Below, in pieces: positions 1-43,694 of a stretch of 64,000 bases of DNA. The DNA is from Eledone cirrhosa (taxonomy: Eukaryota). Each line of letters starts with the position of its first letter. Position 1 is the stretch's first letter. The DNA is taken from assembly GCA_964016885.1 (NCBI GenBank), contig OZ024740.1, positions 95,356,001 through 95,420,000 on the forward strand. The letters run 5' to 3'. The notes under the pieces were generated by a model that had not been told where the DNA came from, ran no database searches, and saw only the letters and a program-made list of their open reading frames with translations. A program made the position numbers and the translations under genes.

Positions 1-1001
1 AAAAATGAAACAATATATGAGAAAGAAAAAAATTGTGTTTAAATCAAAGAGAAAGTAAGAGAGCGGGGTTACCAATTATAAATTAACACTAGAGAAATAG
101 AAAACAAACATAGGTTCGCACATACGCACATATACATATAAAAACAATATATATATGAATACGTATAGGCAAAAGCGCATGCATACGTACATACATACTC
201 ACGAAGCACACACATATATATATATATCGGCACGCGTATATCTAAGCACACGTACGTACGTGACTATATATATACATATATGTATGTGTGCATACACACA
301 CATACATATATATATATACATATACACATATATACACATATTTATACACATACATTCACCTACATACACCCACTCGTATAAATCTAGATATAAAAACACA
401 CATACTCACACATATAGACACACACGCGCACACATACGGAGGCGCATGCACGCTCACACGCATAGATACAAATTATAAACCAGCCATATGAAAAAAAGAA
501 ATACAAATATATATATATATGTATATATCAGTGTCTTTTGTAAACTAAAAGCTGATGCTTTGAATAATATGATCACATAATTCATAACTTGCTAGCTTGT
601 TTGGATTCTGTATGTGCAGTATATTTATTTATATTTAAAAAAATCTGTATGACAATTAAATTCCTGCAATTAGTGCAATACGTCGAACATGAATAATTGT
701 ATTAATTCCACTTTTAGACGTTGTTCTATACTCTAACTTCTTTTGGTCTCTGGAGATACTCTCATTCAATTTAATTAATATTACCCCAGGGATTGTACCT
801 CGGATAATTTATTGTATAAACATATTGACCTTTAAATACCCTTGTCGTATCATACTAAATAAGTTTCTCAAATAGTTGAATGTTGTTATATATATATATA
901 TATATATATATATACTATTTGAGAAAGTTTGTTAGTATGATATGACAAGAGGATTTAAAGGTCAATATGTTTGGACTGGTGTAATTCCTTAAAGGTTTAT
1001 T

Positions 1002-1059
1002 ATACTATGAATATATCAATGACCGGGTTCAGTATAAATCCGGTGACATCATCACGTAT
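1002..1059 (-). ncRNA. Degenerate type I hammerhead ribozyme
   Basis: Minus strand reads atac-GTGATGA-tgtcaccgg..ccggtca-tt-GATA-tattc-ATA-gtat. Stems I, II and III are correctly placed. Two core positions are mutated (CTGATGA>GTGATGA, GAAA>GATA). Confidence 0.55.
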
Positions 1060-1596
1060 TCGAACTTTAACAAAGGAATGTAATCCAATGGGCTGAAAAG
1101 GCAGAGAGACAAGAAGGCGGCAACACATTTAGCAGTTTCTAGTTCGGTCGGCCACCTTCAAGTGAAGACTGCCAATTTATCTTATGTCTTTTCAAGGGGT
1201 GTAAGTTTTAAGTGTACTACTACCACCCCGTCACGGACAGAGGATAGTGGTGGGATCAGGTTACATTGAAGTTAGTCAGAAGTGCTAAAAAGTGCTAAGA
1301 AATATATTTTTTCCAAAACCATATATCTTCAACAAAACTATATAGAATGGATGCCTCCACAGTACATTTTTCATTGTAGGGTCAGAAATTACGATTAACG
1401 ATTAGAAATATGAAATGTATGTTTAGAATTAAAAGATGTCATTTAAGATGAGATTAGAAAAGTAAGATTTGGGTTTAAATTTGGGAGATTTAGTTAAATA
1501 ATTTACAGAAGGAGGCGTTTATGAAAAGGTTAAATGTATTATTGATAATAACGATAAAGTTTCCGGGTAGAATATAAAGTTAAGACTAAGCCCCTC

Positions 1597-2124
1597 TTTG
1601 GCGGTCAGTAACCAGCGACGTCACAGGCTCCCAGCCCACCCGGGGCCCAATGGCGTGTCAACCGTTCCGAGTATTTTCGTCTACCGAAAGAAAGGGAAAA
1701 TTATTTTTTCCGAGCACTCCAGGAATGTTAACTGTCTGAAGCGCCGAGGGCGCTAGCGGGAAACCCGCCACCGTCGGCTGATCATCGTGTACACCAAACG
1801 ATTCTTAGTTATTCACACTGGTGGGTAATTTAGTGAAAGGGCTAGTACATGGAGGCATGGTCAATTTTGAATTTATGATTAAGCCTAGAATTTAAAACTA
1901 CTGTTTGGCGGTCAATAACCGGTGGCACGGTGGATTCCAAGCCCTCCCAGGGCGCAAGGGTGTAACAGCCATTCCGAGTAATTTCGTTTACCGAAAGAAG
2001 GGGAAATTTATTTTTCCAAGCACTCTAGGAAGGCTGATCAACTCGAGCGCCTGGCGTGCAATCGGGAAAGTAGCCACATCAGTCGGATCATCGCGTGCAC
2101 CAAACGATTATTAGTTATTCACAC
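1597..2124 (-). repeat. Two diverged ~220-nt direct repeats (1597-1818, 1904-2124) forming a conserved multibranch RNA structure
   Basis: Shared blocks TTTGGCGGTCA, TTCCGAGTA, TTTCGTYTACCGAAAGAA, GCACTC and CACCAAACGATT-TTAGTTATTCACAC. The intervening stems differ in sequence but still pair. Confidence 0.8.
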
Positions 2125-3126
2125 CCGTGATGTGAAGTTTAAAAGTGGCAAAATCTGAAGAAATGGGTAAGAATACTATAATTAGTCCCCAGTTATCCCG
2201 GGTTATATATAGTGTGATTCCTGAGCGGGTATGGGGAGTGATTACATATAAACAGATATAAAGTGTACAGAGAATGATATTCTAGGGTCGTGTGCTAATT
2301 TTAGGTAACAGATAAGTACAAGGATAAGTATATAAGGAGAATAAAGTGAATAAATACATAAATAAAACATAAATAAAATGCAGTCATACCCAGGGTGGTA
2401 ATTGTGGGAGTAAAAATGGAAGGGAAAAAAATATCGAAGGAATCAAAATACAGAAGAAATAAAATACAGATCAAGGTGTAACAAATAAACAATAGATAAC
2501 ACGGTTGGAGAATACATGGTTATAAATATTGATATAGAGAATGGAAGAGTTGGAGTGGTATCAGACCATAATTAGTATAGGTTCGTGTCTTAATGTTCAA
2601 TGTGAATCCAAAAACCTTGAAATATAGGATAGACAATTCAGTCAATACAATACAGGGTATAATAGAATATGTTGATTTTTTTAAAGAATCTGTGAGGTCT
2701 GACGGTATTTGAGTGTTCCGGACAAGGAAGCAGCAATGCATGGTCCGGGTGGGCGGTAGACATAGCTTAATGCCGCCAAAATCCGAATGGTGTGCAGTTA
2801 GTCCCATATTGGCGACAAATGTACAGTGGAGCCAGGGCCCCTGTTCCTTACTACATCTGGAAGCGCTCGACATTTCCTGGAGGTTTTATACATTTAGGCT
2901 GTTGGTTCACCATTGGATAGAACTGGTCATTCCGTATGGTCAACCTAGATGTAATATTAGGGAGGGCACTCGACGTAATGCAACTTACCCGTCTAAGTTT
3001 AAGTTGTTGGTGGTGCGAGTACGGAATTAATTATTATAAAATAACAGGAGGCTGGACTGGTGTAATTCCTCAAAGGTTTATTAAACTATGAACCCGTTCT
3101 ATCCAGTGGTGAACCAACAAAGCTAA

Positions 3127-3172
<46 letters not shown>

Positions 3173-5594: not shown

Positions 5595-8225
5595 TCTCTC
5601 TCTATATAAAATTATTTGTCTCTCTGTCTGTCAGTATGTTCCGAGGCATTCTTCAACGTTTGGACCAAAACAAATCAAATTTTACAACGGTATTAGACCA
5701 AAGGAGTGTCAACATGTATGTTGTATTTTCATTTGGATTAGAACAATATGACATTTTATCTAATATAACCTTTCTATAGTGAACTATAAGAAACGACCAC
5801 GACCGCTACGACGATGAGTCACATTTTGTATATGAGTGTGTATGTGTATGTGTTGGCGAGTCCGTTGCGTACGTTAGACCTCAGAGAATTAAACTTACAC
5901 ATACATATACGCATTATCTTCCCACGCCACACACATAGTAATATGTCTGTGTGTTTATGTTTTAGTATATTTATGTGAGAGTGTATGTTCATGTGAAAGT
6001 GTATGTTTGAGTGAGTGTATGTGTGATTTTTCTCATTTTTAACGTCAAGCCTCAGAGAATTAAGCGTACACATTCATCTACACATACAGATACATATGTG
6101 ATGACAGCCAGTTGTGCGTGAATGTCTGTCTGTCTGTGTATGTCTTAGTATATGTATTTGAGTCTATGTGAGAGTGTATGTGTGTGCAAGCAAGTGTGTG
6201 TGTTTGTGTGAGTATATGTGTGTGGAAGTGTATTTTCATTTGGAAAACACAACGATGTCTCCTTTTGTATATGAATATGTATGTGTCTGTGAGTGTGTAT
6301 GTGTGCACATTTATTACATACTTTATTAAATACACACACACGTCTACACATTTGTCGCGATCGACTAAAAATGAGGTGAAAAGTTATGCCTGTCTCTGCG
6401 TGAATATATGTATGTATGTGTCTTACATCAAAACCCTTAAGAATAATAATTCATCAGGTATGGGTGGCGTTTCTGCTGAAATGCTGAAGACAGGAGGCGA
6501 AAGCATGGTTAAGTGGACGGGACACCTGTGTAATCTTGTGTGGAACACGGGTGAAGTCCGAGAAGACTAAAGAAACGGAGCGGTTGCCTGTATCCCCAAG
6601 AAGGGCAACCTTGACTATTGTGACAACTGGAAGGGAATGACACTTCTCTCCATACCAGGGAAGGTCTATTGTCTAGTGATCCTGAACCGCATGCGTGGCA
6701 TGGTAGACCGGGAACTGTGAGAACAACAGGCAGGGTTCCGACCAAAACGTTCCTATGCAGAGCAGATATTTCCGCTACGCCGCATCATTGAGAGGTACAA
6801 CGAATTCTAGAGGCCCTTCGCCATCAGCTTCATCGATTTGTCCAAAGCTTTCGATAGCATTCATCAACGTTGCTCTGGAGCATCATGCATGAGTATGATC
6901 TGCCCCAGAAAGTCATTTCGGCAATCAAACATACTTACGCAAACTCCAAGTGGTGCTTATGGACAAAGGATGGTTACAGAGACTGGTTTGAGGTGGTTAC
7001 TTGCGTGCGTCAAGGTTGCTCGCTCTCTCCAATTCTCATTGCCATAGCCATTGACTGGGTACTAAGAAGAGCGTCTAAAGACCAGGGTATATCTTGGGTG
7101 GGAGAGCAAATGTTGTCTGACCTGGACTTTGCGGACTATATTGCTGCACTTGCAGAGGGCACAGCTGACCTGCAAATCATTGTGAACAATATCAATGTCG
7201 AAGCAGGAAGCTTAGGTCTCAATATCAGTGCCAGGAAGACCAAAAGCCTGTTATCTGGGACACAGCCACCACCAACCATTGTCTTCATTGAAAAGGGGGA
7301 AGAGGAGATAGTGGACAACTTCACCTACCTAGGAAGCTCCATAACAATGAGGGCATCATCGACAGTGAACTGCAATGTAGAATGGGAAAGGCTTCAGCAG
7401 CATTTAACCAGCTTCACAAGACCTGGAAGAGCAGGAAGTTCGCCCTCAAAACAAAGATGAGATTCTACAACAGCAACGTGCTGTCCACACTCTTGTACAG
7501 AACTGAAACAAGGCACCTTAAGACCAGCCAAGGGAAGAAGTTGGACGCATTCGATTCCAGTTGTCTGAGAAAGATCCTGCGGATTAAATGGAGTGACCAT
7601 GTAACAAACCAGGAAGTGAGGAATCGGACCAACCAACAGCTAGTCTCTTCTACCATCTGCAAGCAACGCCTGGGCTGGTTTGGATACGTTTCGAGACTCC
7701 CCTTGGAGAGACTGGCGAACCAAGTACTTAAATGGAGTCCGCAGGGAAGCAGACGGTGAGGCCGACCCAAAATGAACTGGCGCCAGACAGTTGAGAGAGA
7801 CCTGCGAGCGACAAACAGACAATGGCGGGACACTGTGCAACTGGCTGCTGAACGAACGCGATGGAACACTATGATTGCCGCATGTGTCGCAAGGCGCGGG
7901 AGTTTCTGAGTCTGAGAGTGCCTGCGTGAATATATGTCTGTGTGTGCCTCAGAGTGTATGTATGTGAGTGTGTAGCAACAATTTATTCATTTGGACACCA
8001 ACAAAATATTATATAACGAATATTGTTTACCCCAAGATAAACAATATTCAAGATTGACAGATTTTCATTCTAAATTCTATTAACATTACAATTTTGATAT
8101 TTTAAAAATACAATATAGATATTCAGAAATAATTATGAGAAAAAAAACTCATATCTTGGTTTTTATTGTTTATTAATCTGAATAAGAACAGCAGTAATCC
8201 CGGCAACGCGGAGTAATTCAGTTAG
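5595..8225 (+). mobile_element. Probable non-autonomous Helitron, interrupted by an RTE LINE
   Basis: 5' end TCTCTCTCTATATAAAA..TGTCTGTC. 3' end has GC-rich hairpin-like CCCGGCAACGCGGAG followed by AGTTAG (degenerate CTAG). Internal GT-rich subrepeats. Confidence 0.5.
6430..7915 (+). mobile_element. 5'-truncated, frameshifted RTE-clade LINE (RT to C-terminus)
   Basis: Motifs SAEMLK, TLLSIPGKVY, EQQAGFR, FIDLSKAFDSI, VRQGCSLSP, LDFADY, FTYLGS, RLGWFGYVSR and GRPK. TCTGAG-repeat tail. Possible degenerate TSD CTGCGTGAATATATGT at 6396 and 7922. Confidence 0.9.
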
Positions 8226-14560: not shown

Positions 14561-14704
<144 letters not shown>

Positions 14705-14807
14705 AAGTATTGAAATTTCCGTTGGAAACAGAAAAGGTCATAGAAATGAAGAGTGCTCTATGTAAGTATCAGAGCAAAATTTAATGTATAAAAATCAATA
14801 CAATATA

Positions 14808-14885
14808 ATTACCTCATTACCAGAGGTTTCCCGAAAGAGGCGAATACGAAATAAACGACTTCATTCGTTCGTCAGAAGAGGCAAT
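14808..14885 (-). ncRNA. Type I hammerhead ribozyme (inverted-arm copy)
   Basis: Reverse complement of 19985-20062 with intact CTGACGA, GAAA and GTA. Confidence 0.83.
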
Positions 14886-15444
14886 ATAAAACATGGGCAA
14901 ATACTTAGAAAAACACATCAAGAAAATCAAAAAAAGATATAGATAAATGAAATAGAAATTGAAATATATAAAAATCTATCAAGAAATATAGTTAGGTGTG
15001 TGTATATGTATGTATATACGCTCACAGATGTGCATATATGTATATGCGCACATGTATATGTATAGTGAGAAAGTGTGCGTAATTCTAAAATTTAGGGCAA
15101 ATGTATCTATGTGTCTGTATTATACAGACAGAAATGGTTACATCGTAAATATATAAATATGAAGGCTCGCGCATAAAACGCCTGGACACTCGTACACTTA
15201 GATGCGGAAAGAAAGGAGGTAAGGGAGTGTAATAATTAAAAGAAAACTATCAGTCTCGATATATTTATAAAAATATAATAACGATAAATTAGAAAGAAAA
15301 TATATAAGAAAGAAAAAATTAAAGAAAACAAAAAGGGGGGGGGGGTACATACATACACAGACACGCGTGTCTCACAAAAGAAATGTAAAAATAATTATGC
15401 TTATATACACACGCGCACTTACACTTCCATACGTTCGATACGTA

Positions 15445-15487
<43 letters not shown>

Positions 15488-16105
15488 TTATACTCGCGCA
15501 TATAAACCTGTTTGCATGCCCACGTATGAAACTGAGTAAGTAAAAAAAGGGGAAGGGAGGGGGGAGAAGAAAAAAGGAACAAAACATAAAACCGAGATGT
15601 CAAAATCACGGATATAAAGACACGTACACATACGCATAATATATACATACACACACACACAAACACCTGTACACACACACATATATACACATATATATAC
15701 ATATACATATATACATATACATACACGCACGCGCGCGCACATACGTAGTCACTCATGTACATATATAAAAAGTATACACACATTAAGGCGTTCAGCCATA
15801 TTGAATTGTGGATAAATAAGTACAAATATAAAAATGTAAGATAGGCTGCGCAAAAATAAAATAAAAATAAAAATGAAAAATATATCTGGATTGAAAAACA
15901 CAAAAGACAAGTATAATCAGTTAGTGGAGGAAAAAGGGAAGTAAAAGAAGGGGAAGAAAAAAATAGAAAATAGGAAGTGGATCGGAGAATAAAGGGGGGG
16001 GGGGGTGAAGTAAAAATAAATAAAAGTGAAAATAAATGAAATTATTGACAAGGATAAAAATGAAAGTAAGTCAGAAAGGGTAATTAAAAAGAGAATAATA
16101 AGAGT

Positions 16106-17271
16106 TTATGGAGGATAAGTATCTGAAAGTGTGTTAAGTTTATATGAGCTGGAAAGCAGGTGTGATTTCATGTGTGGGCAACTGGTGAAAATTTCCGTCT
16201 TTGTGTTCAGGCAGGTCTTTGGTGATTTAAGATTTTGCAATATCCAACATTTTTCATTTATGCAGAGCCTGCATTTTCTTGTTCCTCTAGCATATTTTTT
16301 AGATTGGTTCAAAATTGACCAATCTAGTTTATATTGGATGCCTTGGTCTTTCAAATCCCAAATTCTGCTAGCCAGAGCTGTTGTAAATCTTTTTTCTGGA
16401 TGTCGAAAGCATGCGACATGTGAGTAATAACGCGTTTTGAATCTGTCTTGCGTCATACAGTCATATCGTTCACTGGTGGCTGGATGGTTGTTGCTGATGG
16501 TTGTCACTTTAGCCGCATATACCATGGCTTTGGTGTTGCATTTACCTTGTAATGGGCATTCACTTTTGATTCTACAGGAGCAAGTTTGATTTTCTCTAGG
16601 TGATATTTTGTTGAGGATATAGGACTCAATAGGGGGACCGCAGGAATAACTAATTTTAACACAGTTTCTGTTAAAGATCTTATAGTATCTATGTGTTCTA
16701 GGGAAATTTTTATCTAGGAGTTCTAGGAATTTTTTGCCTACATTAGTTTTAACTGCTAGAGAGTAGGGGGGTGTTAACCAGATTATTTTTCTTTTCCTAT
16801 TCTTATGTTTAATAGAGTTAGTGTAGTTAGGTATGTATTTAATCGGTTCGCTAAAGCCGCTATTTTGGAGGGCTTTATTATAGTAGGGGGATGCCTTATT
16901 AAACATAGCTTCTGAGGAAGAGAGGGTGGAGATCCTACGGCTAATATTAGGGATGAGGTTTTTAAAAACTATAGGTGGATGGCAAGATCCTTTATTTATA
17001 TATTTTAAGTTTTCATTAGGTTTATGGTATGGTTTATAAGAAGCAGTAGGCAAATCTAGGTTTATATCTAGGAAATCTACGTTGGAAAGTTTAGTGTCAA
17101 TAGTAATTTTAAGATTAAAACTAGCGAAGGTTTTTATTAAGTCTTTCCTTAATCTATCTAAGTTATGGCCTATGGTGGTATGGGAAAGTATTAGACCATC
17201 ATCGGGATAAAGCCCAAAAATATGGTTAGGAAATTTTTCTTTAAGTGTATGTAAGAGGAATAGGCCGACCA
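16106..17271 (-). pseudogene. Inverted partial copy of the same PLE ORF
   Basis: 391-aa ORF near-identical to the + copy. YRDD>YPDD and YVG>YDC. Retains the C-terminus SCPHMKSHLLSS. Confidence 0.92.
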
Positions 17272-18741
17272 TTAAATACACACATTAGAAGTAAGTCTAA
17301 ATTACTCCAATGGATAAATAGCTCTTCCGTAGTACATTGGTTTAATAATATTAAAAACAAAATCAGTTCTAGATTCACCCAATTTGACATCGTATATTTC
17401 TACCCATCTATTACTCAGACCCTTTTAGTGAAAGCTTTAAATTTTGCTAGAGGGTTCACTAATATCTCCGATATTGAAGAGGATGTCATCTTGCATGCTA
17501 GGAACACTCTACTTGTTAATGATAATGACACTTGGGCAAAAATATCTAACCCAGAGAACCCATTCGATGTCTCAATGGGCTCTTATGACAGTGCCGAGGT
17601 TTGTGATCTGGTCGGCCTATTCCTCTTACGTACACTTAAAGAAAAATGTCCTAACCATATTTTTGGGCTTTATCGCGATGATGGTCTAATACTTTCCCAT
17701 ACCACCATAGGCCATAACTTAGATAGATTAAGGAAAGACTTAATAAAAACCTTTGCTAGTTTAAATCTTAAAATTACTATTGACACTAACCTTTCCAACG
17801 TAGATTTCCTAGATATAAACCTAGATTTTCCTACTGCTTCTTATAAACCATACCATAAACATAATGAAAACTTAAAATATATACATAAAGGATCTTGCCA
17901 TTCACCTATAGTTTTTAAAAACCTTATCCCTAATATTAGCCGTAGGATCTCCACCCTCTCTTCCTCAGAAGCTATTTTTAATAAGGCATCCCCCTACTAT
18001 AATAAAGCCCTCCAAAATAGCAGCTTTAGCGAACCGATTAAATACATACCTAACTACACTAACTCTATTAAACATAAAAATAGGAAAAGAAAAATAATCT
18101 GGTTCACACCCCCCTACTCTCTAGCAGTTAAAACTAATGTAGGCAAAAAATTCCTAGAACTCCTAGATAAACATTTCCCTAGAACACATAGATACTATAA
18201 AATCTTTAACAGAAACTGTGTTAAAATTAGTTATTCCTGCGGTCCCCCTATTAAGTCCTATATCCTCAACAAAATATCACCTAGAGAAAATCAAACTTGC
18301 TCCTGTAGAATCAAAAGTGAATGCCCCTTACAAGGTAAATGCAACACCAAAGCCATTGTATATGCGGCTAAATTGACAACCATCAGCAACAACCATCCAG
18401 CCACCAGTGAACGATATGTGGGTATGACGCAAGACAGATTCAAAATGCGTTATTACTCACATGTCGCATCCTTTCGACATCCAGAAAAAAGATTTACAAC
18501 AGCTCTGGCTAGCAGAATTTGGGATTTGAAAGACCAAGGCATCCAATATAAACTAGATTGGTCAATTTTGAACCAATCTAAAAAATATCCTAGAGGAACA
18601 AGAAAATGCACGCTCTGCATAAATGAAAAATTTTGGATATTGCACAATCTTAAATCACCAAAGACCTGCCTGAACACAAAGACGGAAATTTCTCACCAGT
18701 TGCCCAAGCATGAAATCACACCTGCTTTCCAGCTCATATAA
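17272..18741 (+). pseudogene. PLE RT-GIY-YIG ORF, 5'-truncated, frameshift near C-terminus
   Basis: QFDIVYFYPSI, MGSYDSAE, GLYRDDG, VDFLD, linker CSC-x5-CPLQGKC, IVY...YVGMT and CTLC..EK. Confidence 0.93.
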
Positions 18742-19984
18742 ACTTAACACACTTTCAGATACTTATCCTCCATAAACTCTTATTATTCTCTTTTTAATTA
18801 CCCTTTCTGACTTACTTTCATTTTTATCCTTGTCAATAATTTCATTTATTTTCACTTTTATTTATTTTTACTTCAACCCCCCCCCCCCGCCCCCCTTTAT
18901 TCTCCGATCCACTTCCTATTTTCTATTTTTTAATTCCCCTTCTTTTACTTCCCTTTTTCCTCCACTAACTGATTATACTTGTCTTTTGTGTTTTTCAATC
19001 CAGATATATTTTTCATTTTTATTTTTATTTTATTTTTGCGCAGCCTATCTTACATTTTTATATTTGTACTTATTTATCCACAATTCAATATGGCTGGACG
19101 CCTTAATGTGTGTATACTTTTTATATATGTACATGAGTGACTACGTATGTGCGCGCGCGTGCGTGTATGCATATGTATATATGTATATGTATATATATGT
19201 GTATATATGTGTGTGTGTACAGGTGTTTGTGTGTGTGTGTATGTATATATTATGCGTATGTGTACGTGTCTTTATATCCGTGATTTTGACATCTCGGTTT
19301 TATGTTTTGTTCCTTTTTTCTTCTCCCCCCTCCCTTCCCCTTTTTTTACTTACTCAGTTTCATACGTGGGCATGCAAACAGGTTTATATGCATGAGTATA
19401 AGTATGTGTGTGTGTGTGTGTGTATGTACGTATCGAACGTATGGAAGTGTAAGTGCGCATGTGTATATAAGGATAATTATTTTTACATTTCTTTTGAGAG
19501 ACACGCATGTCTGTGTATGTATGTACCCCCCCCTTTTTTGTTTTCTTTAATTTTTTTCTTTCTTATATCTTTCCTTTCTAATTTATCGTTATTATATTTT
19601 TATAAATATATCGAGACTGATACTTTTATTTTAATTATTACACTCCCTTACCTCCTTTCTTTCCGCATCTAAGTGTACGAGTGTCCAGGCGTTTTATGCG
19701 CGCGCCTTCATATTCATATATTTACGATGTAACCATTTCTGTCTGTATAATACAGACATATATATACATTTGCCCTAAATTTTAGAATTACGCACACTTT
19801 CTCACTATACATATACATGTGCGCATATACATATATGCACATCTGTGAGCGTATATACATACATATACACACACCTAACTATATTTCTTGATAGATTTTT
19901 ATATATTTCAATTTCTATTTCATTTATCTATATCTTTTTTTGATTTTCTTGATGTGTTTTTCTAAGTATTTGCCCATGTTTTAT

Positions 19985-20062
19985 ATTGCCTCGTCTGACG
20001 AACGAAGGAAATCGTTTATTTCGTATTCGCCTCATTCGGGAAACCTCCGGTAATGAGGTAAT
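19985..20062 (+). ncRNA. Type I hammerhead ribozyme in the PLE 3' end
   Basis: attgcctcgt-CTGACGA-stem II-GAA-ACCtccGGT-A-atgaggtaat. 10-bp stem I, predicted cut after GUA at 20052. Confidence 0.88.
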
Positions 20063-20088
20063 TATATTGTATTGATTTTTATACATTA

Positions 20089-20140
<52 letters not shown>

Positions 20141-21371: not shown

Positions 21372-21472
<101 letters not shown>

Positions 21473-21511
21473 GATAAAGAACACAAGAGCGTCTACAACA
21501 TCAAAAGATTT

Positions 21512-21568
21512 TTATTGGCTTACAATGTTTCTTCCTTACGTAACCGTAGGATTTCTTCAGAGCTATAA
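21512..21568 (-). ncRNA. Minimal type I hammerhead ribozyme (inverted arm)
   Basis: Minus strand: agct-CTGAAGA-aatcctacg-gtta-cgtaagga-a-GAAAC-att-GTA-agcc. Confidence 0.78.
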
Positions 21569-24044
21569 AAGGGGTTGGATTGGTGTTATGGACTCTACCA
21601 ACCAAACATTCAAGAACAAAGAGTAAAGAGAGTAAAGAGCAAAAGCAGGGGACGATAAGTCTAATTTTGGTGCGGGAGGGTGGGGTGTGGGTCCTTGTTT
21701 ACTAGCAGTGGTCATATTTATTCCCGGGAGTCGAGTGGTTTGTGGAGCCATATATGGGGTGGCGTCGATAGTAGGGTGCAGAGGGCGTGCAGAAGCTACA
21801 CACACACAAAGGGCATACACTATATATATAACGGAGGAGAAAGTACATGAGGTACTTAGAAATGGAATAAGAGTAATAATAATAATCTATAATTAATTTA
21901 ATTAATAATGTATAATAAGGCATGGGGAAGATTACACTATAATAAGGTATAAAAGTAAGAATAAGGTAAAATATAAAGGAGGATAAGAATGAAAATAAGA
22001 ATAAAGATATAAACATATATATAAAAATATATAGAGAATATATAAAAAAAATATAAGCAAGTATTAGGAGGTAAAAACACAATGTAAAAAAACCGATTTT
22101 GTAAAATAAAAATATTACGGGATAGAGAAATATAATCAAATGTGATTAGTTGAGAGAATATAAGATTGTAATAGTTATGTCAAGGTTTATACATCTTAAT
22201 AATAAATAATCTGTATATCAGAGTTACACATCCTTCAATTCACTTGCAAGTTCAACCCACGTGGCATGATTCATTGCTCATCTGTGCGGCCGTGTGCGTT
22301 TGTGTTTGACACCACAGCAGATGCACAAGTTCGTAAATTTCAATGCAGATAGAAATCTATTTTTGCTCACCCAGACATTGACGGAGGATCCAATATTCCT
22401 AGTTCAATATGTGTGTGGTGTTATTTTGGTCGCACAAATCAATCACTTGGTTCAATATTATGGAGTATGGTTTTCTGGTCTTCGTAACAGTGTCAGTGGT
22501 TGTATATCTCGAAATCACAAGGATCACAGTACTCCGGTTTGGTGTGATTATCGGTCATCCAACTATGTTGTCGGTGGTTGGATTCAATTCTATTGCCCAG
22601 AACGTAGAACTTTGGTGTTGATTGAAAATTAACGAGGCAGAGTGAGATCGCATCTGTGGTACAAAACGGTACGCAAGGAAATTCTTCGTCTTCGTTTCAT
22701 CCGGGTCTAGCAGTCACGTGCAAGAACCGCTACGTAGTAATTGTGAGGGTAAGCGGTCAAGATAGTAACTGACCGAAAATTTTCTTGGGAATTCAGACAG
22801 GCATGACAGGTACATTTAGGTCAGCAGTTTCTTCATATGTACGTGTGTCCGATACAAACAGACACATATTTATATGTATTTCAACTCAAAAAATTCAATT
22901 GATTCGCTTATTGATCTTATATCTCTGTTGATCCGATGTGCATGTTGTGATGTTCAGGTCGTGTTTACCATTCACTATGTTTTGCCATACCTTGGAATGT
23001 GATGTTATGATCATGAATAGTCCGGCAAGCGCATTCCTCTCTTATATTGTGGAGAAGGGAGTTCTGGTCCTCAGTAAACATTTGGGTCAGCAGGAGGGGT
23101 GGTGGTTCTCAGTTTCAACTGTGACAATACATATGTGTTACTCTACATATCGTGCTCCTCTCAAAGAAGAGTATTATAGGAGGAATTCATGCCAAACACC
23201 ACATATAGAGAAGACTTCTACGTCAATGTCTGGGTGAGCAAAAATCGATTTCTATCTGCATTGAAATTTACGATCTTGTGCATCTGCTGTGGTGTCAAAC
23301 ACAAACGCACACGACTGCACATATGAGCAATGGACCATGCCACGTGGGTTGAACTTGCAAGTGAATTGAAGGATGTGTAACTCTGATATACAGATTATTT
23401 ATTCTTAAGATGTATAAACTTGACATAACTATTTTCATCTTATATTCTCTCAACTAATCACATTTGATTATATTTCTCTATCCCGTTTTCTCCCCCCATA
23501 TTTATAATATTTTTATTTGACAAAATCGGTTTTTTTACATTGTGTTTTTACCTCCTAATACTTGCATATATTTTTTTATATATTCTCTATATATTTTTAT
23601 ATATATTTTTTTTATCTTTATTTTTATTTTCACTCTTATCCTCCTTTATTTTTTACCTTATTCTTACTTTTATACCTTATTATAGTGTAATCTTCCCCAT
23701 GCCTTATTATACATTATTAATTATAGATTATTTTGATTACCCTTATTCCATTTCTAATTACCTCATGTACTTTCTCCTCCGTTATATATATATTGTATGC
23801 CCTTTGTGTGTGTGTAGCCTCTGCACACCCTCTGCACCCTCCTATCGACGCCACCCCATATATGGCTCCACTAACCACTCGACTCCCGGGAATAAGTATG
23901 ACCACAGCTAGTAAACAAGGACCCACACCCCACCCTCCCGCACCAAAATTAGACTTATCGTCCCCTGCTGTTACTCTTTACTCTATTTACTCTTTGTTCT
24001 TGAATGTTTGGTTGGTAGAGTCCATAACACCAATCCAACCCCTT

Positions 24045-24100
24045 TTATAGCTCTGAAGAATACTGAGGTTACGTAAGGAAGAAACATTGTAAGCCAATAA
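24045..24100 (+). ncRNA. Minimal type I hammerhead ribozyme
   Basis: tagct-CTGAAGA-stem II-GAAAC-att-GTA-agcc. Confidence 0.75.
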
Positions 24101-24515
24101 CAATATGTTGATGTTGTAGACGCTCTTGTGTTCTTTAGCATATATACGGCTCTGCTCCGAAGCATAGAGCTAATTATTATGCTGCCAATACTTTAATGGG
24201 GCACGGGTATACAATACCTAACTCCTATTAACCTAAGTATATATATATATAGTAAATGTCAAACACTATTCAATGATTATGTCAAAGAATGAGTGTTACA
24301 GTAGATTGGAAGGACTCAACATAAAAAACATTATTTTCTGGAGTTATTAATATTAAATTATAAGTATTAATAAAATAGATGTTCTTTTGATCAATTACAT
24401 GTTATTATACATATTAGAAGGTACAACTGTACGTCCAAATCAGACAAAATATAATGATACATGACATACCCTGAGATGTTAAATGTTTAAGATTTAATCA
24501 AGGTAGTGATTAACC

Positions 24516-28633: not shown

Positions 28634-28900
28634 AATGTAAGTATGCATGCATACGTACATACATATATGTATACAGACGTACAGTAGCATGCACATATAT
28701 ATATATATATACATATATACATACATATGCATACAGGTACACATACATATATGCACGTATCAGTTTAGCGGCGATAAAATATCGTTTTCGGTATGCCTGA
28801 CCGATTTAACTCACTCAATATGCAAATTAGGCTGCTCAGCCGTTAATTTTCATAAGGAAAGTATATACTTTCGAACGTTCAACTATCTGGCAGATGGGTA

Positions 28901-28945
28901 AACGGTGCTGATGATAGCTAACAAGCTTGAAACTAGTACATCGTT
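28901..28945 (+). ncRNA. Minimal type I hammerhead ribozyme, unit 1 (intact)
   Basis: aacggtg-CTGATGA-tagctaacaagctt-GAAAC-ta-GTA-catcgtt. Palindromic stem III ACTAGT. Confidence 0.9.
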
Positions 28946-29830
28946 CCTGTGTCAGTGTTGAACAAAAAGGTGACGTGGTTGCCTTAACACCGTATGGCAT
29001 AAATTCAGGCTGTTCAGTTTGTTTACAAACGAACAAAGCGACGTTAGCGCCGCTAAACTGATACGTGCATATATGTATGTGTACCTGTATGCATATGTAT
29101 GTATATATGTATATATATATATATATGTGCATGCTACTGTACGTCTGTATACATATATGTATGTACGTATGCATGCATACTTACATTTAAGTAAGTGCCA
29201 TACTAAGAGTGATAAATGAAATTTCGTTTTCATTTTGTTTCAATTTATCGTTTTCGGTATGCCTGACCGATTTAACTCACTCAATATGCAAATTAGGCTG
29301 CTCAGCCGTTAATTTTCATAAGGAAAGTATATACTTTCGAACGTTCAACTATCTGGCAGATGGGTAAACGGTGCTGATGTTAGCTAACAAGCTTGAAACT
29401 AGTACATCGTTCCTGTGTCAGTGTTGAACAAAAAGGTGACGTGGTTGCCTTAACACCGTATGGCATAAATTCAGGCTGTTCAGTTTGTTTACAAACGAAC
29501 AAAGCGACGTTAGCGCCGCTAAACTGATACGTGCATGTATGTATGTGTACCTGTATGCATATGTATGTATATATGTATATATATATATATGTGCATGCTA
29601 CTGTACGTCTGTATACATATATGTATGTACGTATGCATGCATACTTACATTTAAGTAAGTGCCATACTAAGAGTGAGAAATGAAATTTCGTTTTCATTTT
29701 GTTTCAATTTATCGTTTTCGGTATGCCTGACCGATTTAACTCACTCAATATGCAAATTAGGCTGCTCAGCCGTTAATTTTCATAAGGAAAGTATATACTT
29801 TCGAACGTTCAACTATCTGGCAGATGGGTA

Positions 29831-29875
29831 AACGGTGCTGATGATAGCTAACAAGCTTGAAACTAGTACATCGTT
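29831..29875 (+). ncRNA. Minimal type I hammerhead ribozyme, unit 3 (intact)
   Basis: Identical to unit 1. Unit 2 (29367-29411, CTGATGT) and unit 4 (30277-30320, C deleted) carry core lesions. Confidence 0.9.
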
Positions 29876-30619
29876 CCTGTGTCAGTGTTGAACAAAAAGG
29901 TGACGTGGTTGCCTTAACACCGTATGGCATAAATTCAGGCTGTTCAGTTTGTTTACAAACGAACAAAGCGACGTTAGCGCCGCTAAACTGATACGTGCAT
30001 CTATGTATGTGTACCTGTATGCGTATATATGTATATATATATATGTGCATGCTACTGTATACATATATGTATGTACGTATGCATGCATACTTACATTTAA
30101 GTAAGTGCCATACTAAGAGTGAGAAATGAAATTTCGTTTTCATTTTGTTTCAATTTATCGTTTTCGGTATGCCTGACCGATTTAACTCACTCAATATGCA
30201 AATTAGGCTGCTCAGCCGTTAATTTTCATAAGGAAAGTATATACTTTCGAACGTTCAACTATCTGGCAGATGGGTAAACGGTGTGATGATAGCTAACAAG
30301 CTTGAAACTAGTACATCGTTCCTGTGTCATTGTTGAACAAAAAGGTGACGTGGTTGCCTTAACACCGTATGGCATAAATTCAGGCTGTTCAGTTTGTTTA
30401 CAAACGAACAAAGCGACGTTAGCGCCGCTAAACTGATACGTGCATATATGTATGTGTACCTGTATGCATATGTATGTATATATGTATATATATATATATA
30501 TATGTGCATGCTACTGTACGTCTGTATACATATATGTATGTACGTATGCATGCATACTTACATTTAAGTAAGTGCCATACTAAGAGTGAGAAATGAAATT
30601 TCGTTTTCATTTTGTTTCA

Positions 30620-30676
<57 letters not shown>

Positions 30677-30678
30677 GT

Positions 30679-31149
30679 TAAACGGAATAGAAAATGCTGA
30701 CAAATTGTTCACAGTTGAAAAATGGTTTAATTAGGAATAAAAGAGTATTAGTGATTGTATGGGTTAGTATTCAGTTGTGGTTTTGAGTTTTTAAGTGTTT
30801 ACCGGTTGCGCATTTTTAAATGCTTTTCAAAAATAATTTTGAGATAGAGTGTCCGTGCTGTTTGCTCTGATCTGATTAGTTTTGGGAATTCTACCTGTTT
30901 TTATGTTAAAAAAGTGGCTCCAGCGTTAATTTGGTGTTGCAAAATTTCTTGTGGTCAAAACAATTTTGATTGGTCGGTAGAGGTCATGCGAGTGTAAACA
31001 ATCGATTTTGCGCCAAGACTGTTTTTATGTTAAAAAAGTGGCTCCAGCAACAATTTTTGTGGTCAAAACAATTTTGATTGGTCGGTAGAGGTCATATGAA
31101 TAAAACATTGGTTTTGCGCCAAGATTGAGAAATGACTCTTTCACGAAAA

Positions 31150-31210
<61 letters not shown>

Positions 31211-31324
31211 TGTATGTGTGTGTGTATGTGTGTATGTGTGTGTGTGTGTGTAGTAGTAGTAGTAAGGTGTTCGATGTTGTGATAATGGTAAGCAGCGATG
31301 TGTGTCAAATGGCTATTGAGATAA

Positions 31325-31357
<33 letters not shown>

Positions 31358-31558
31358 GCAGAGTAATTCGTGGTGTCAGGGATGGTCAGTAAGAATGTGT
31401 CTGAAAGCAATGGGGGGTATTTTAGCATGTCTAAAGATATTTTTCAGCTTTTGTCTTATACGGAGAAGTGCGTGTGTGTGTGTGTGTATATAAGTCTCTT
31501 TGTACGTTGATGTACGCGTGTGTATGTGTGTGTGTTTATATATATATGTGTGTGTATT

Positions 31559-31601
<43 letters not shown>

Positions 31602-34600
31602 ACCAGTATTTTTTCCCCCTGGTAAAATGGTGTACATTATTCGATTTTTTCAGTAAAATCGGTTCTCTTAATAGAACATCAAAAATCTTAACGATAAAAG
31701 GTGTGAAATGATATTCTTTATATATATATATACACACATACATATATTCACTATATACATATATATATATATATACACATATATACATATATATACACAT
31801 ATATATGCACATATATTTTTTTGTGTTGCACCATAGAGCATGTGTGTTTACGTATGTCATTGTGTTTATATGTGGGTAGAGATGTGTGCTGATGTAGGTA
31901 TGTATGTTGACGTGCGTATGTTGTACTTTCGTCTTAGGGAGAAGTGTTTAGACGGGGTCCATATTTGTTAATGAAGTTAGATTCCTTGATGATGCGCTGG
32001 GTGTGGGTGGCATTATCTTTAAATTTGTAGAGGGGAAAGATTCTGAAGTTGGGATGATTTTGGGCGGCACAGGTATTTTGTTCACTCAGTGGTATTTTCC
32101 TGTATTCCCGTATTTTAATTTGGGATCTATGGACAGTCATGCATTGGCGGAGGCTGATTTTGGTCTGGCCTATGTATTGTTCTGGACAACCTGAACAAGT
32201 TAATACATATATTAGATTTTCCGATGCACATGTGAAATTGTGTTTTACTATAAAACGTTATCCATCTTTGAAATAGAATTCCGAACCCTTTATTAGGCTG
32301 ATGCAAATGCCACAGTTGGGTCTATCGCATTTTTTTACTGTGAGTTTCGTTGTTGTGGTTGGCAGTACTTTGGCATGTGTTAAGATGTTTTTCATTGACT
32401 TGGATTGTCTTTTGCTATTTATGATATCGTGTGTTCGTAGAATTTGGTTCATTCTATGGTCCTTTTTTATTACAGGGATGTTCTGGAGGATGGTGTCAAA
32501 GGACTCATTGTTGAGGGGGTTGTGTGTGGAGATGTATGGAAGAGCTTTTAGTTTTGGTTGATTTACTTTAGGGTGTCAAAGGTCCTGGGTACTGAGTTTT
32601 AGGGCACGTTGGATTCCATTGTCAATTAGTGATGCAGGGTAGTCCCTGCCTATGAGTGTGTCCTTTAGTTCTTGTAGCCGTAAGTAGCAGATGTTTTTAT
32701 TGGAGACTATAGTACAGATTCTTTTGGCTAAGTTGTAGGGAATATTAATTTTAACGTGTCTGGGGTGGCAAGAGTTGATGGGATACCTGGAAATCACCCT
32801 CTACACTAAAGTCCTAAACGAATTTGGAAACACCTTCTACTTACACATTGAAAGGAACTGGAAGCGATATCTAGATGACTGCTTCATCCTTTGGCACGAA
32901 AACATCGAAAAACTTAAAGAATTTCACACCCTTATAAATGGGCTCAACACAAATATTAACTTCACGATGGAATGCAGCCATCAACAACTCCCCTTCCTCG
33001 ACATCCTCATTAATATCCATAACAAAAAATAAAAACAGACATATACTACAAGCCCACAGACTCCAAGCAATATCTCCCCTTCAACTCTTGCCACCCCAGA
33101 CACGTCAAAACTAATATTCCCTACAACTTAGCCAAAAGAATCTGTACTATAGTCTCCAATAAAAACATCTGGTACTTAAGGCTACAAGAACTAAAGGACA
33201 CACTCATAGGCAGGGACTACCCGTCATCACTAATTGACAATGGAATCCAACGTGCCCTAAAACTCAGTACCCAGGAACTTAGACACCCTAAAGTAAATCA
33301 ACCAAAACTAAAAGCTCTTCCATACATCTCCACACACAACCCCCTCAACAATGAGGCCTTTGACACCATCCTCCAGAACATCCCTGTACAGAAAAAGGAC
33401 CATAGAATGAACCAAATTCTACGAACACACGATATCATAAAGAGCAAAAGACAATCCAAGTCAATGAAAAACATCTTAACACATGCCAAAGTACTGCCAA
33501 CCACAACAACGAAACCCACAGTAAAAAAATGCGATAGACCCAACTGTGGCATTTGCATCAACCTAATAGAGGGTTCGGAATTCTATTTCAAAGATGGACA
33601 ACGTTTTATAGTAAAACACAATTTCACATGTGCATCGGAAAATCTAATATATGTATTAACTTGTTCAGGTTGTCCAGAACAATACATAGGCCAGACCAAA
33701 AACAGCCTCCGCCAACGCATGACTGTCCATAGATACCAAATTAAAATACGGGAATACAGGAAAATACCACTGAGTGAACACATTGATACCTGTGCCGCCC
33801 AAAATCATCCCAACTTCAAAATCTTTCCCCTCTACAAATTTAAAGATAATGCCACCCACACCCAGCGCATAATCAAGGAATCTAACTTCATTAACAAATA
33901 CGCACCCCGTCTAAACACTTCTCCCTAAGACAAACCCATAACATACACACGTCAACATACATACCTACATCAGCACACATATCTACCCACATATAAACAC
34001 AATGACATACGTAAACACACATGCTCTATGGTGCAACACAAACAAATATATGTGCATATATATGTGTATATATATGTATAGATGTGTATATATATATATA
34101 TATGTATATAGTGAATATATGTATGTGTGTATATATATATAGTGAATATCATTTCACACCTTTTACTGTTAAGATTTTTGATGTTCTATTAAGAGAACCG
34201 ATTTTACTGAAAAAATCGAATAATGTACACCATTTTACTAGGGGAAAAAATACGGGTCCACCCACACACACACATATGTACACACACACATACACACGCG
34301 TACATCAACATACAAAGAGACTTATATACACACACACACACACACACACACGCGCACTTCTCCGTATAAGACAAAAGCTGAAAAATATCTTTTGACGTGC
34401 TAAAATGCCCCCCATTGCTTTCAGACACATTCTTACTGACCATCCCTGCCACCACGAATTACTCTGCTATATACACACACACACACACACACACACGCTT
34501 ATCTCAATAGCCATTTGACACACATCGCTGCTTACCATTATCACAACATCGAACACCTTACTACTACTACTAAACACACACACACACACACACACACATA

Positions 34601-35115
34601 TTTGTTGTGAAAGAGTCATTTCTCAATCTTGGCGCATAACCAATTTTTTATTCACATGACCTCTACCGATCAATCAAAATTGTTTTGACCACAAGAATTG
34701 TTGCTGGAGCCACTTTTTTAACATAAAAAACAGTCTTGGCGCAAAATCAATTTGTTACACTCACATGACCTCTACCGACCAATCAAAATTGTTTTGACCA
34801 CAAGAAATTTTGCAACACCAAAGTAACGCTGGAGCCACTTTTTTAACATAAAAACAGGTAGAATTCCCAAAACTAATCAGATCAGAGCAAACAGCACGGA
34901 CACTCTACCTCAAAATTATTTTTGAAAAGTATTTAGAAATGCGCAACCGGTAAAAACTTAAAAACTCAAAACCACAACTGAATACTAACCATACAATCAC
35001 TAATACTCTTATATTCCTAATTAAACCATTTTTCAACTGTGAACAATTTGTCAGCATTTTCTATTCCGTTTACCAATATATAATAACTTTTGTGTTACAC
35101 CTCTATTCTTTTAAC
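30679..35115 (+). mobile_element. Neptune-type PLE inserted as a 4.4-kb quasi-palindrome
   Basis: 30679-32778 is the reverse complement of 33081-35072. The spacer continues the + strand RT. (TA)n on both sides. Confidence 0.9.
32778..33928 (+). pseudogene. PLE RT(3' part)-GIY-YIG ORF, one frameshift near 33030
   Basis: WKRYLDDCF, LPFLD, YYKPTDS..SCHP, linker CDRPNCGIC, LIYVLTCSGC..YIGQT, and His residues completing CCHH. Confidence 0.92.
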
Positions 35116-35229: not shown

Positions 35230-37110
35230 AGGACTGGCGTAGCAGCATCATCGTTATATGTTACAAGGTTAAAGGAGACGCCCTAGATAGGAGTAACTAT
35301 AGAGGCATTAAATTAATCGACCAGGTCATGAAGGTCAGGTAAAAAGTAATAGCGCAACTAATCAGAGAGAAAATTGATCTAGATCAAATGCAGTTCGGGT
35401 TTGTGTCAGGCAAAAGTACCACAAACTCTCCTTTCATTGTACGACAACTACAGGAGAAGTACCTAGCTAAAATTAAACCCATATACTTAGCTTTTGTCGA
35501 CTTGAAGAAAGCCTTCGACAGAGTCCCCCGTTCCATTATCTGGTGGGCTCTTAGAAAACTAGGTGTTGACGAATGGCTTGTGAGAGTTATACAAGCCATG
35601 TATAAAGAAAGAGTCAGCAAGGTTTAAATTAACAACGAATATAGTGAAGAGTTTAGCGTAAAAGTTGGTGTCCATCAGGGCTCTGTTCTTAGCCCCCTAC
35701 TATGTATTATTGCCCTTCAGGCTATAACAGAGGAGTTCAAGACGGCTGCCCATGGGAACTCCTATACGCAGATGATCTAACGCTCATAGCTGAATCAATG
35801 GCCGAGCTAGAGAAGAAATTCCAAACATGGAAGCACGGCCTAGAATCAAAAGGCCTTAAAATTAACCTGGCTAAGACTAAAGTTCTAGTTTGTAGGAAAG
35901 AAAATAAGGCGCCGGTCCCTTCCGGGAAATGGCCATGCTCAGTGTGTAGGAAAGGCGTAGGTAGAAACCCCATTTTATGTCCCAAATGCAAAGTATGGGT
36001 GCATAAAAGATGTAGTGGGATCACAGGTAAGCTAACTAAGAACACAGATTTTACATGTGGCCGGTGCAATAAGTAGCAGCAAGTGCCCACGAAATACTAG
36101 CTCTTTCAATTGCGCAGAGGGTTCTTTAGAAATAGTGGACAGCTTCCGTTACCTGGGTGACAAAATCAGCAGTGGGGGTGGGTGCTCCGAAAGTACAGTA
36201 GCTAGAGTAAGAACTGGATGGAAAAAGTTCAGAGAGCTTATACCACTATTAACCGCTAAAGGGTTCTCCCTAAAAATGAAAGGCACGTTGTATGATGCCT
36301 GCATACGAACAGCAATGTTGCATGGCAGTGATACCTGGGCATTGTGTGCAGAGGATAAACGCAGACTAGAGAGGAACGAAGCTTGCATGCTCCGCTGGAT
36401 GTGTAATAGTAATATACGTGAACGGCAAAGCATAAACGAACTAAGGAAAAACATAGAAATAAGAGGGATCAGATGTTGTTTACTCGAGAGAAGGCTACGT
36501 TGGTATGGTCACGTGATGCGCATGAAAGACGACATCTGTATAACAAAGTGCAGGGCAATAAAGATAGATGGTAGCCACGGAGTAGGCAGACCCAGAAAAA
36601 CCTGGGACAAGCTGATACATTCCGACCTCACACACTTACACCTCTCCAAGAAAATGTCACTGGACCGAGACCTTTGGCGGTACTCAGTAATAGAGAAGAC
36701 CCGCCTTACCTAAATACAAAGTGAAACCTACTACAATCAGTAGGCATCTCTAACAAAATACACCCCCGTCCCATTACCCCCACCCCATCCACACCGCCCC
36801 TTTCAATGTAAAGTTATGTTGGTGCCACAACATCCAGGCCGAAACAAATGAGATCGTGTAGGTGTCACGACAAAAAAACACACGGTCCACGCTGTAATTT
36901 GGCCGTGTAGGCAACACGGTAAAAACCTCCCAGTTCCACACTGTAAATGTGGTTGGTGTTAGGAAGGGCATCCAGCTGTAGAAAACCCGCCAGACAGTCC
37001 TATGCGAGCAATACAACCACTCTTGCCTCAAGTGGGAAAACTCCCGTCCAAACCCATGCAAGCGTGGAATATGGACGTTAAACGATGATGATGATGATGA
37101 TGATGATGAT
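35230..37110 (+). mobile_element. 5'-truncated RTE-clade LINE with a Cys-rich finger in the RT region and an (ATG)n tail
   Basis: NYRGIKL, QFGFVSG, FVDLKKAFDRV, VHQGSVLSP, LLYADDL, FRYLGD, RRLRWYGHVMR and GRPRKTW. Tail GATGATGAT at 37084-37110. Confidence 0.92.
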
Positions 37111-37112
37111 AT

Positions 37113-37987
<875 letters not shown>

Positions 37988-38101
37988 ATATATGTAGGAG
38001 GTGAGCTTTATTATAGTACAATAAAGCAATGCAGATATCGGATAAGTAGGACTGGAGTATAAATACTATGAGATCAAATGTTGGTTAAAAGAATGCAATG
38101 C

Positions 38102-38170
38102 ATTCTATTATGCGCATTTCAAAAACAAATATTATCATGAGATGACATTTGCGTTTTCGTCAGATAAAAT
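38102..38170 (-). ncRNA. Type I hammerhead ribozyme
   Basis: Minus strand: attttat-CTGACGA-long stem II-GAA-ATGCGCAT-A-atagaat. Palindromic stem III, AUA site. Confidence 0.8.
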
Positions 38171-42230: not shown

Positions 42231-43490
42231 AAGTATACAGCTAATATATAATACTTTACCAGTTTAAAATCCTTTTTCTCAAAGGCATATATATATATAT
42301 TTCTTTAAATATACCCATCTTTCTACCTTATTTCAATGTTATTTATTATACATTATATAACACTAATTACTCATTCTATATCAATCCTATTTATCAATTC
42401 CCTTTCTTCCTCTTTTCTTTTAATTTCTAACCTCTAATATGTACTTTTTCTTCCTAGATACTTCTCAATTCTTATTATTACTCACCACAATATAACCACT
42501 CTTCCTTCTTCCTTCATATCATTGACCATAAAACTTATGATTACCTTTTTAATACTTTATTGTATTACCTTTAAAAATTCTTCGTAAACATAAACATTGT
42601 TTGACGTTAGATTATTCCTCCTCTATTCATTATATTCTTTTCTCCCTTTCATGCTCGTCTAACTTTTACATATTACATATCATAATACATAAAAACAAAC
42701 TTAAACCCTAACTAATCTCCTTTATTACATTATATTATATTATTACCATTAGGAAATACTTCATAAACATATATATTTTGTTGTTAGAGTCTTCTCTTCC
42801 TTAAACACTATTTTCTTCTTTGTTTCTGCGCTCATTTGTAAACAAACTATTTACATATATTACGCATACATATTACATTACATAAAAACAAACTTAAACA
42901 CTAACTAATTCCTCTAAATCCATAATTCATCCACTCCTCTACTTCTTTTCACATTATATCCTTAATAACATTAATATTTTTTTAATTTAATAATACATAT
43001 TAACAATTTCTTTTCGTAGCACGTATTATTAAACCCTTCAATATGCAAACCTCAATTTAATATTATTCTTAATACATATTAACAATTTCTTTTCATCGCA
43101 CATATTCTTAAACCCTTCAATATACAAACCTTAATTTAACATTATTGTTAATTTTTTTTTCTCTTCATTAATTTTTTTCTCTTCATCAATTTTCAAATTC
43201 TTTTAAATTATCTTCCAACGGCTTTTTAACCTCTCTCTGTGAAACAATATATTGTTCTCAGTTATAAAGGCTATCTCTCTCTTTCTAACACCAATCTCTC
43301 CTCCTATCTCAACCTTCCTTATTATACTTCTCCCCAACGATTCTTTACTCTGATCTCTTCCTCTTTTTCATCCTTACCACCCCCTCCCATTGTTATCCCA
43401 ATATCACGCATCAATCTTAAATTACGTTTCACATGTTGATTTAAACTGCACTATTCACAAGTGTTTTTAAACATTCATATCATGTCTCCC

Positions 43491-43561
43491 TATTTTATCT
43501 GACGAAAACGCAAATGCCATCTCATAATGATATTTGTTTTTGAAATGCGCAAAATAAAATA
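43491..43561 (+). ncRNA. Type I hammerhead ribozyme with mutated cleavage triplet
   Basis: tattttat-CTGACGA..GAAATGCGCAAA-ataaaata (ATA>AAA). Confidence 0.7.
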
Positions 43562-43694
43562 CATGGAACTCTTTTAACCATCTTTTGATCTTATATTATA
43601 TGTATATATATATATATATATATGTATATATAAGATGGAAAAATTTGAACCGGAACAAAACAGAGAAGCAGTACAACGTATATATGTGTATGTA

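Follow-up and report, generated by a model that had tools for sequence, protein, structure and literature searches.

What kind of mobile element is the non-coding, 2,081-nt unit near the start of the window, i.e., of the whole 64-kb stretch of DNA analysed here? A preliminary description regarded it as a giant, non-coding retrozyme mobilised by PLEs, and several parts of that view stood up: the element is multi-copy, non-coding and hammerhead-bearing, with PLE-type insertion marks. The exact match that had been claimed between its 5' end and the ribozyme cut site did not. We consider it probable that the locus is a decayed copy of a multi-copy, non-coding, non-autonomous PLE of 2.08 kb, for whose copying a (TA)n-targeting PLE supplied reverse transcriptase and endonuclease in trans.

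The unit runs from predicted cut site to predicted cut site (1006–3086, minus strand) and is non-coding by ORF search, Pfam and protein comparison; the window holds 1.02 copies of it. The sense body (972–3092, minus strand) comprises one unit plus 40 nt of redundancy. Its 3' terminal repeat (972–1011, minus strand), where this copy ends, consists of 6 nt of hammerhead and a 34-nt tail, and matches the 5' terminal repeat copy (3053–3092, minus strand) as a direct repeat at 38 of 40 positions (E 6e-12 against the 64-kb window), confirming the 40-bp terminal redundancy reported earlier. The predicted cut between 1006 and 1005 is equivalent to 3087/3086 in the 5' repeat, as previously noted, and this repeat extends 6 nt beyond that point. 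A short 5' inversion was likewise borne out, with 3092–3133 being the reverse complement of 2887–2927 (37 of 42 positions, E 1.4e-7 within the 64-kb window). The inverted head itself (3093–3133, plus strand) is 41 nt long, is joined via the ATGA microhomology already proposed (overlap at 3088–3091) and enters the target microsatellite, a (TA)19 found by repeat scan at 3130–3167, with TATA common to both.

The (TA)n flanks described on both sides hold for the right end only. On the left, the (TA)14 at 887–914 lies 57 bp from the unit and forms the loop of a separate hairpin, an inverted repeat (818–971) that is a different repeat outside the unit and probably represents two 3' ends of another element, face to face. 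Its right arm stops exactly at 972, and the unit's left end is fused to this foreign 57-bp arm. The end of this copy at 972 is about 20 nt short of the nearer (TA)n end of the family; since the sense arm should reach that near site, the 40-bp redundancy is likely the remnant of about 60 bp. The unit also contains an internal 225-bp duplication (1594–1818 and 1901–2124, 75% identical) that was absent from the preliminary description.

The earlier statement that the element has no ORF was upheld. No ORF in the unit exceeds 121 aa (121 and 105 aa for the two longest frames free of stops), neither of the two longest ORFs has a Pfam family, and a tblastn comparison of the unit with seven PLE ORF pieces from the window gave no match below E 1.6. 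An ORF for RT and GIY-YIG endonuclease, the hallmark of an autonomous EN+ PLE, is absent from the unit; there is no DNA match between the unit and the PLE copies in the window, and no tRNA in the unit. The 121-aa ORF at 2520–2885 had seven protein matches among 1.84 billion proteins, all of which were judged to be artefacts: the two that were compared consisted of summed weak repeat matches, with a best single stretch of 25–28 bits, and four of the seven are beta-helix repeat proteins. Pattern scans gave matches, attributed to chance, in 14 viral contigs and in one metagenome contig of bacterial appearance, none extending beyond 28 nt.

The hammerhead-like motif of the preliminary description was confirmed, in decayed form. 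A relaxed descriptor finds a type I hammerhead at 1002–1059 (minus strand) in which stem I has 4 bp, stem II has 9 positions, two of them mismatched, and stem III has 2 bp closed by a 4-nt loop, while a strict descriptor fails at this motif, whose core departs from consensus at positions 3 (C3G) and 14 (a change at A14). The relaxed descriptor was set after the strict one had failed and the motif had been seen; when the element was shuffled 300 times, 1% of the shuffles gave any match. Across the window it identifies six sites, namely this motif, two PLE-type 3' ends and three others, one of which is akin to the hammerhead of a tandem repeat described below and two of which lie inside ORFs and are probably false. 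The proportions of the three helices are like those of PLE hammerheads, which are described as having a short helix I, a long helix II and a tiny helix III (PMC4209133, in its available text). The ribozyme of this copy is predicted to be dead, as C3G abolishes cleavage in an Anolis PLE ribozyme according to the accessible part of PMC11167929. Folding of the hammerhead region gave a z of -2.1. Rfam returned nothing relevant in the element; this is no counter-evidence, because the best 150 of 173 Rfam rows for the window also contain no hammerhead despite the exact-core ones present there.

Four public DNA runs (X1, X2, X4 and X5, of which X1 and X2 derive from one sample) were mapped to 916–3129 at 80% likeness; they were taken from seven runs returned by a search, none recorded as RNA. 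In X1, X2 and X5, all 30 bins were covered by sequence that is 80–99% alike, which supports the extent of the sense body and indicates a repeat family, sequence from all parts of the 2,081-nt unit being repeated. Run X4, from organism B, covered 3 of 30 bins with one 151-nt piece at depth 2 and carries no evidential weight. The 3,523 X1 contigs span a broad range of divergence (398 at least 99% alike, 917 at 95–99%, 1,439 at 90–95% and 769 below 90%); 204 places show a difference in 30% or more of X1 depth, and indels among relatives are mostly of 1 nt (six of eight among the 40 of 292 variant rows listed, none of which falls in the hammerhead).

Depth, which in such runs is not the same as copy number, was very uneven. 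X1 depth reached 271,022 at 990–1063, 64,000–154,000 at 2914–3129 and 33,705 at 1952–2025, against a median near 800 over 23 interior bins by our own count, all of which were covered. In three of the four runs, the hammerhead bin was the deepest of the element when contig depth was used, or one of the deepest when reads were used. Given this excess of depth at the ends, most end copies come from shorter or otherwise different sequences; the unit ends are common to far more abundant sequences, none of them linked to an ORF. Within the unit, depth drops at 1193 to just one contig, with further low points at 1171–1179, 2322–2395 and 2898. X1 contigs with many differences tile 1482–2229 and 2573–2882 in order, and from this tiling a family of complete 2.08-kb units can be inferred; among the best 17 of 6,929 pieces, the longest is 334 nt and none spans the unit.

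Position 972, one boundary of the element as first described, is not where the relatives end among the rows listed; there, they end on (TA)n at about 2890–2900 and at 3032. The far 3' end (2887–2900, minus strand) lies about 190–200 nt behind the cut; among the loose ends listed, 873 X5 reads, 27 X1 contigs and 28 X2 contigs end before 2900 with (TA)n directly adjoining, which suggests that this is a priming site, used by the inverted head too. The near 3' end (3030–3038, minus strand) lies about 54 nt behind the cut. Here, the listed loose ends of X2 lie before 3032 as well as before 972, and 501 of the 805 X5 reads listed terminate at 3032, pointing to a second priming site. In total, 210 X5 reads with 43 start places cross a joint that leads from 3070 to 991. 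Thus the head-to-tail junction of the unit is present in other copies, and many genomic copies carry hammerhead, tail and head in unbroken succession. Because this joint exists in DNA, the same joint in RNA would not prove a circle.

At the 5' junction, the direct repeat passes the cut by 6 nt, of which 4 (ATGA) also fit the inverted piece, and the body therefore ends 1–6 nt beyond the scissile bond rather than on it. A cDNA that ended at the cut would require a chance match between the hammerhead and the 6 bases that follow, as well as three changes in the inverted piece; for one that extended 6 nt further, one change is enough and the ATGA overlap accounts for the join. Since the body extends past the cut, the template likely spanned the cut site. 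A stop within 6 nt of the cut is itself unlikely under uniform truncation (about 0.3–0.6% of positions, by our own arithmetic). Our reading is that reverse transcription read through the site and then stalled on entry into the hammerhead, in which case the template was continuous across the site, either uncleaved or circular; the basis is a single junction, which fits both forms alike. There was no pile-up at the cut site among the 7 of 12 begin/end places and the 18 of 911 loose ends listed. In the Anolis PLE system, as far as the available text of PMC11167929 goes, cleavage is unneeded for insertion, unprocessed RNA is the main substrate and no reads end at the cut site.

Inverted heads have been modelled by twin priming, a model from LINE-1 work. 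The reading as a non-autonomous PLE is supported by the terminal redundancy and the inverted head on (TA)n, which match the PLE layout published in PMC8557442 (accessible part): a partial tandem, an inverted 5'-truncated copy and a tail. The unit accordingly presents a pLTR or partial tandem with tail, an inverted 5'-truncated piece and a microsatellite target. Under the proposed route, an RNA of more than unit length that spans the hammerhead site without a break, whether a read-through transcript left uncleaved or a circle formed by re-ligation, would bind the PLE protein via its pLTR-like ends. The endonuclease would nick both (TA)n strands, with each end priming reverse transcription at about 54 or 190–200 nt behind the cut. 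One cDNA would copy the whole unit and stop 1–6 nt past the next cut site; the other would stop after about 41–44 nt, and a join at the ATGA overlap would give the inverted head. Both products are present at the locus. Since then, the copy has drifted, with the loss of two core letters and of about 20 nt at its 3' end, and it now adjoins a different repeat. An autonomous partner of the unit was not found within the 64-kb window.

The window does hold PLEs of the expected kind. It is AT-rich, with many (TA)n, (CA)n and long inverted repeats, several of which enclose PLE-type ORFs; the host appears to be an invertebrate rich in microsatellites, perhaps a cephalopod. Exact-core hammerheads within 260 nt of a (TA)6 occur at nine sites, six of which make up three inverted pairs, and such PLE-type pairs (14700–20100, 21470–24200 and 37970–43600) have a hammerhead near each outer end and one short and one long tail before (TA)n (34/112, 49/146 and 46/140 nt), and they give a clear view of two priming sites per insertion. 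Relatives of the unit, with ends at 54 and 190–200 nt, share this two-tail pattern with the window pairs, as would be expected from two internal start sites (PMC11167929, in its accessible part). In the copy studied here, the inverted arm used the far site, and the sense arm is fused to the foreign arm short of the near site. Three mutually similar PLE ORFs (16106–18741, 39530–42121 and 58500–61056) carry CxCX5C or DKT motifs, which mark the (TA)n-inserting Hydra clade according to the available text of PMC8557442. Pfam names none of the scanned ORFs among 16–18, 39–42 and 58–61 kb; judged by their motifs, they appear Hydra-like, which would place a suitable enzyme type in the genome.

The PLEs in the window also give some weight to an alternative, in which the unit consists of the 5' and 3' UTRs of an autonomous PLE, brought together when this copy, or a few copies, lost the ORF. 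The simple form of this idea, that the sequence is just the UTR of an autonomous PLE, was named in the preliminary description as its refuter and is weakened because the unit's head repeats behind the hammerhead. The form with a deleted ORF we regard as possible, though unlikely. It gains from two of the three PLE ORFs having about 1.2 kb of non-coding sequence from ORF stop to 3' end, T-rich and G-poor in the sense direction like the unit, and from the depth lows, which would fit a private join (those at 1193 and 2898 could mark it); both points count against the non-autonomous PLE. The 218 X5 reads that exit the unit at 2903 into a different sequence also speak for it, and are themselves a candidate entry to a sister family or an autonomous partner. 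Set against this are the divergent pieces and joints (the latter among the 15 of 50 listed), which link most of the interior and keep their order along the unit (1165 to 1254, 1482–2229, 2139 to 2261, 2292 to 2610 and 2573–2882), an X1 depth of 139 at 2898 compared with about 5–11 for single listed contigs, and the lack of any ORF remnant.

The giant retrozyme of the preliminary description is a special case of the preferred reading: an active hammerhead would cut a multimer to 2.08-kb monomers, whose ligated circles serve as template. The more-than-unit length of the copy and the stop of its body within 6 nt of the cut would both agree with this, as would the loose ends behind 3070, whose median length in both X1 and X2 is 19, so that they end about 2 nt past the cut. 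An X1 loose-end consensus (28 contigs, agreement 0.75) has a palindromic loop III, typical of hammerheads that act as dimers, although this consensus is noisy, its farther letters miss the expected core and that of X2 differs. Circular templates have, moreover, been proposed for PLEs (PMC4209133, available text). Against these stand the single junction, the lack of a pile-up among the begin/end places and loose ends listed, the C3G change together with the dispensability of cleavage in Anolis (PMC11167929, accessible part), the absence of a tandem array from the window, and a unit whose fold is no more stable than that of shuffles, in contrast to retrozyme circles, which are highly self-paired. 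We consider this special case doubtful, and equally so its fuller version, a family of 2.08-kb hammerhead-processed RNA circles copied by (TA)n-targeting PLE enzymes, in an animal genome, with the RT stalling just past the ribozyme junction, and carrying the duplicated 225-nt domain, the core of which is common to other repeats. A chimeric locus, with short, abundant PLE ends set around unrelated repeat pieces by nesting or template switching, is very improbable: the uneven depth with its separate peak at 1952–2025, the 79% of mapped X5 reads that continue into unlike sequence, the fusion of the left end to the foreign arm and the crowding of the region with PLE fragments would suit it, but no (TA)n or inverted junction lies inside 1084–2880, overlapping divergent contigs traverse the interior in order and strand bias is uniform along the unit.

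The interior of the unit has been credited with structured cargo, a claim that is weakly supported by folding analysis. The duplicated domain A (1594–1818, minus strand) is GC-richer and has a predicted three-way-junction core whose structure is weakly supported; domain B (1901–2124, minus strand) is 75% identical to A. Among 21 windows of 120 nt per strand, the best z was -2.6, with domain A at -2.1 and domain B at -1.5 on the sense strand. Folds of A and B share 37 pairs in the sense direction and 19 in antisense, almost always where the two sequences are identical, and the one compensatory pair between them is reached in 14 of 150 null runs. A null for pair sharing (0 of 150) was given no weight, as it spreads changes evenly whereas real conservation is clustered. 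Alignment folding against column shuffles gave z of -1.4 for sense and -2.5 for antisense. Ten family-majority letters fall in the domains among the variant rows listed, nine of them at predicted pairs, where four keep and five break the pair. A circular fold of the unit, made on this decayed copy, reached -459 kcal/mol with 54% of bases paired, within the -427 to -461 kcal/mol of four shuffles.

A viroid- or HDV-like rod was rejected on the circular fold, and so was a box C/D or K-turn in the duplicated domain, whose register conflicts with the predicted helix and which has no Rfam support. Loose ends listed within the depth peak of 1952–2025 and near it fall at 1999 and 2031. As a separate observation, the core of domain B at 1980–2030 stands at about 40 times the median interior bin in X1 and its loose ends continue into other sequences, so it is common to other, more abundant repeats; a conserved three-way-junction core in these repeats is possible on the folding models.

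The Chlamys element MRC1 is about 1.6 kb long. Together with Chlamys-N4_cRei, it resembles the unit in being a non-coding PLE derivative with pLTRs and a microsatellite target, and both are described as having ends similar to those of autonomous partners and mostly short, 5'-truncated insertions (PMC8557442 and PMC9977147, in their available parts). These elements come from a green alga, target (C)n or (CA)n and, within the same parts, mostly have no canonical hammerhead, whereas the unit sits in an animal-type genome, targets (TA)n and has a hammerhead. It is also like the EN+ PLEs, both Hydra and Penelope/Poseidon/Neptune, in its partial tandem, inverted 5' piece and tail, its two internal 3' ends, its insertion into (TA)n and its hammerhead shape (PMC8557442, PMC4209133 and PMC11167929, accessible parts). 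It differs from them in having no RT or GIY-YIG ORF, in its duplicated 225-bp domain and in its lack of DNA similarity to the PLEs of the window.

Animal non-LTR retrozymes, which are proposed to be PLE-derived and PLE-mobilised, are like the unit in being non-coding and bounded by type I hammerheads, with a GC content below 45% (PMC7229834 and bioRxiv 10.64898/2026.07.22.740005, available parts). The latter derives them from PLE pLTRs and gives consensus lengths of 51–972 bp from a survey whose repeat-period search was limited to 1000 bp; at 2,081 nt, the unit is about twice the largest of these. Further differences are its 1.02 copies instead of a tandem array and its inverted head. Retrozyme circles are highly self-paired (PMC7229834 and PMC7761336, accessible parts) and the unit, judged on a decayed copy, is not. 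Three classical retrozyme traits that were tested, namely a tandem array, a short unit (about 150–1000 nt) and self-pairing, are thus not found in it, while it shares with retrozymes the lack of a protein-coding region. A literature search that covered few subscription papers returned no account of an animal retrozyme of kilobase size. The element lists of PMC8557442 and PMC13282606 might already include this family.

If the unit does represent a family, hammerhead-bearing PLE parasites of animals range in size from a few hundred bases up to 2 kb, which is beyond the reach of the published tandem-repeat screen with its 1000-bp limit (bioRxiv 10.64898/2026.07.22.740005, available part). The 5' junctions of over-unit copies would also bear directly on whether PLE-type elements are copied from RNA that has been cut and re-ligated into circles or from transcripts left uncleaved. 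Should the unit instead be a deleted autonomous PLE, it is ordinary debris.

Several other elements were observed in the window. A 464-bp tandem repeat at 28780–30625 (four copies, 96% alike) has the look of a classical tandem non-LTR retrozyme: minimal hammerheads with an exact core occur at 28908 and 29838, and a related hammerhead lies at 37622. An inverted pair at 30762–34990 encloses a C-terminal GIY-YIG ORF (Pfam domain at 33023–33928) with a CX2-5CxxC linker and appears Neptune-like by the description in the accessible part of PMC8557442. The 38–43 kb PLE family has a third hammerhead copy at 63113–63168, which is changed at two core positions and is separated from (TA)n by 134 nt. Broken ORFs at 6172–7759 and 35693–36713 resemble, by eye, a LINE (RTE-type) reverse transcriptase, and a DUF6451 match was recorded at 7292–7756.
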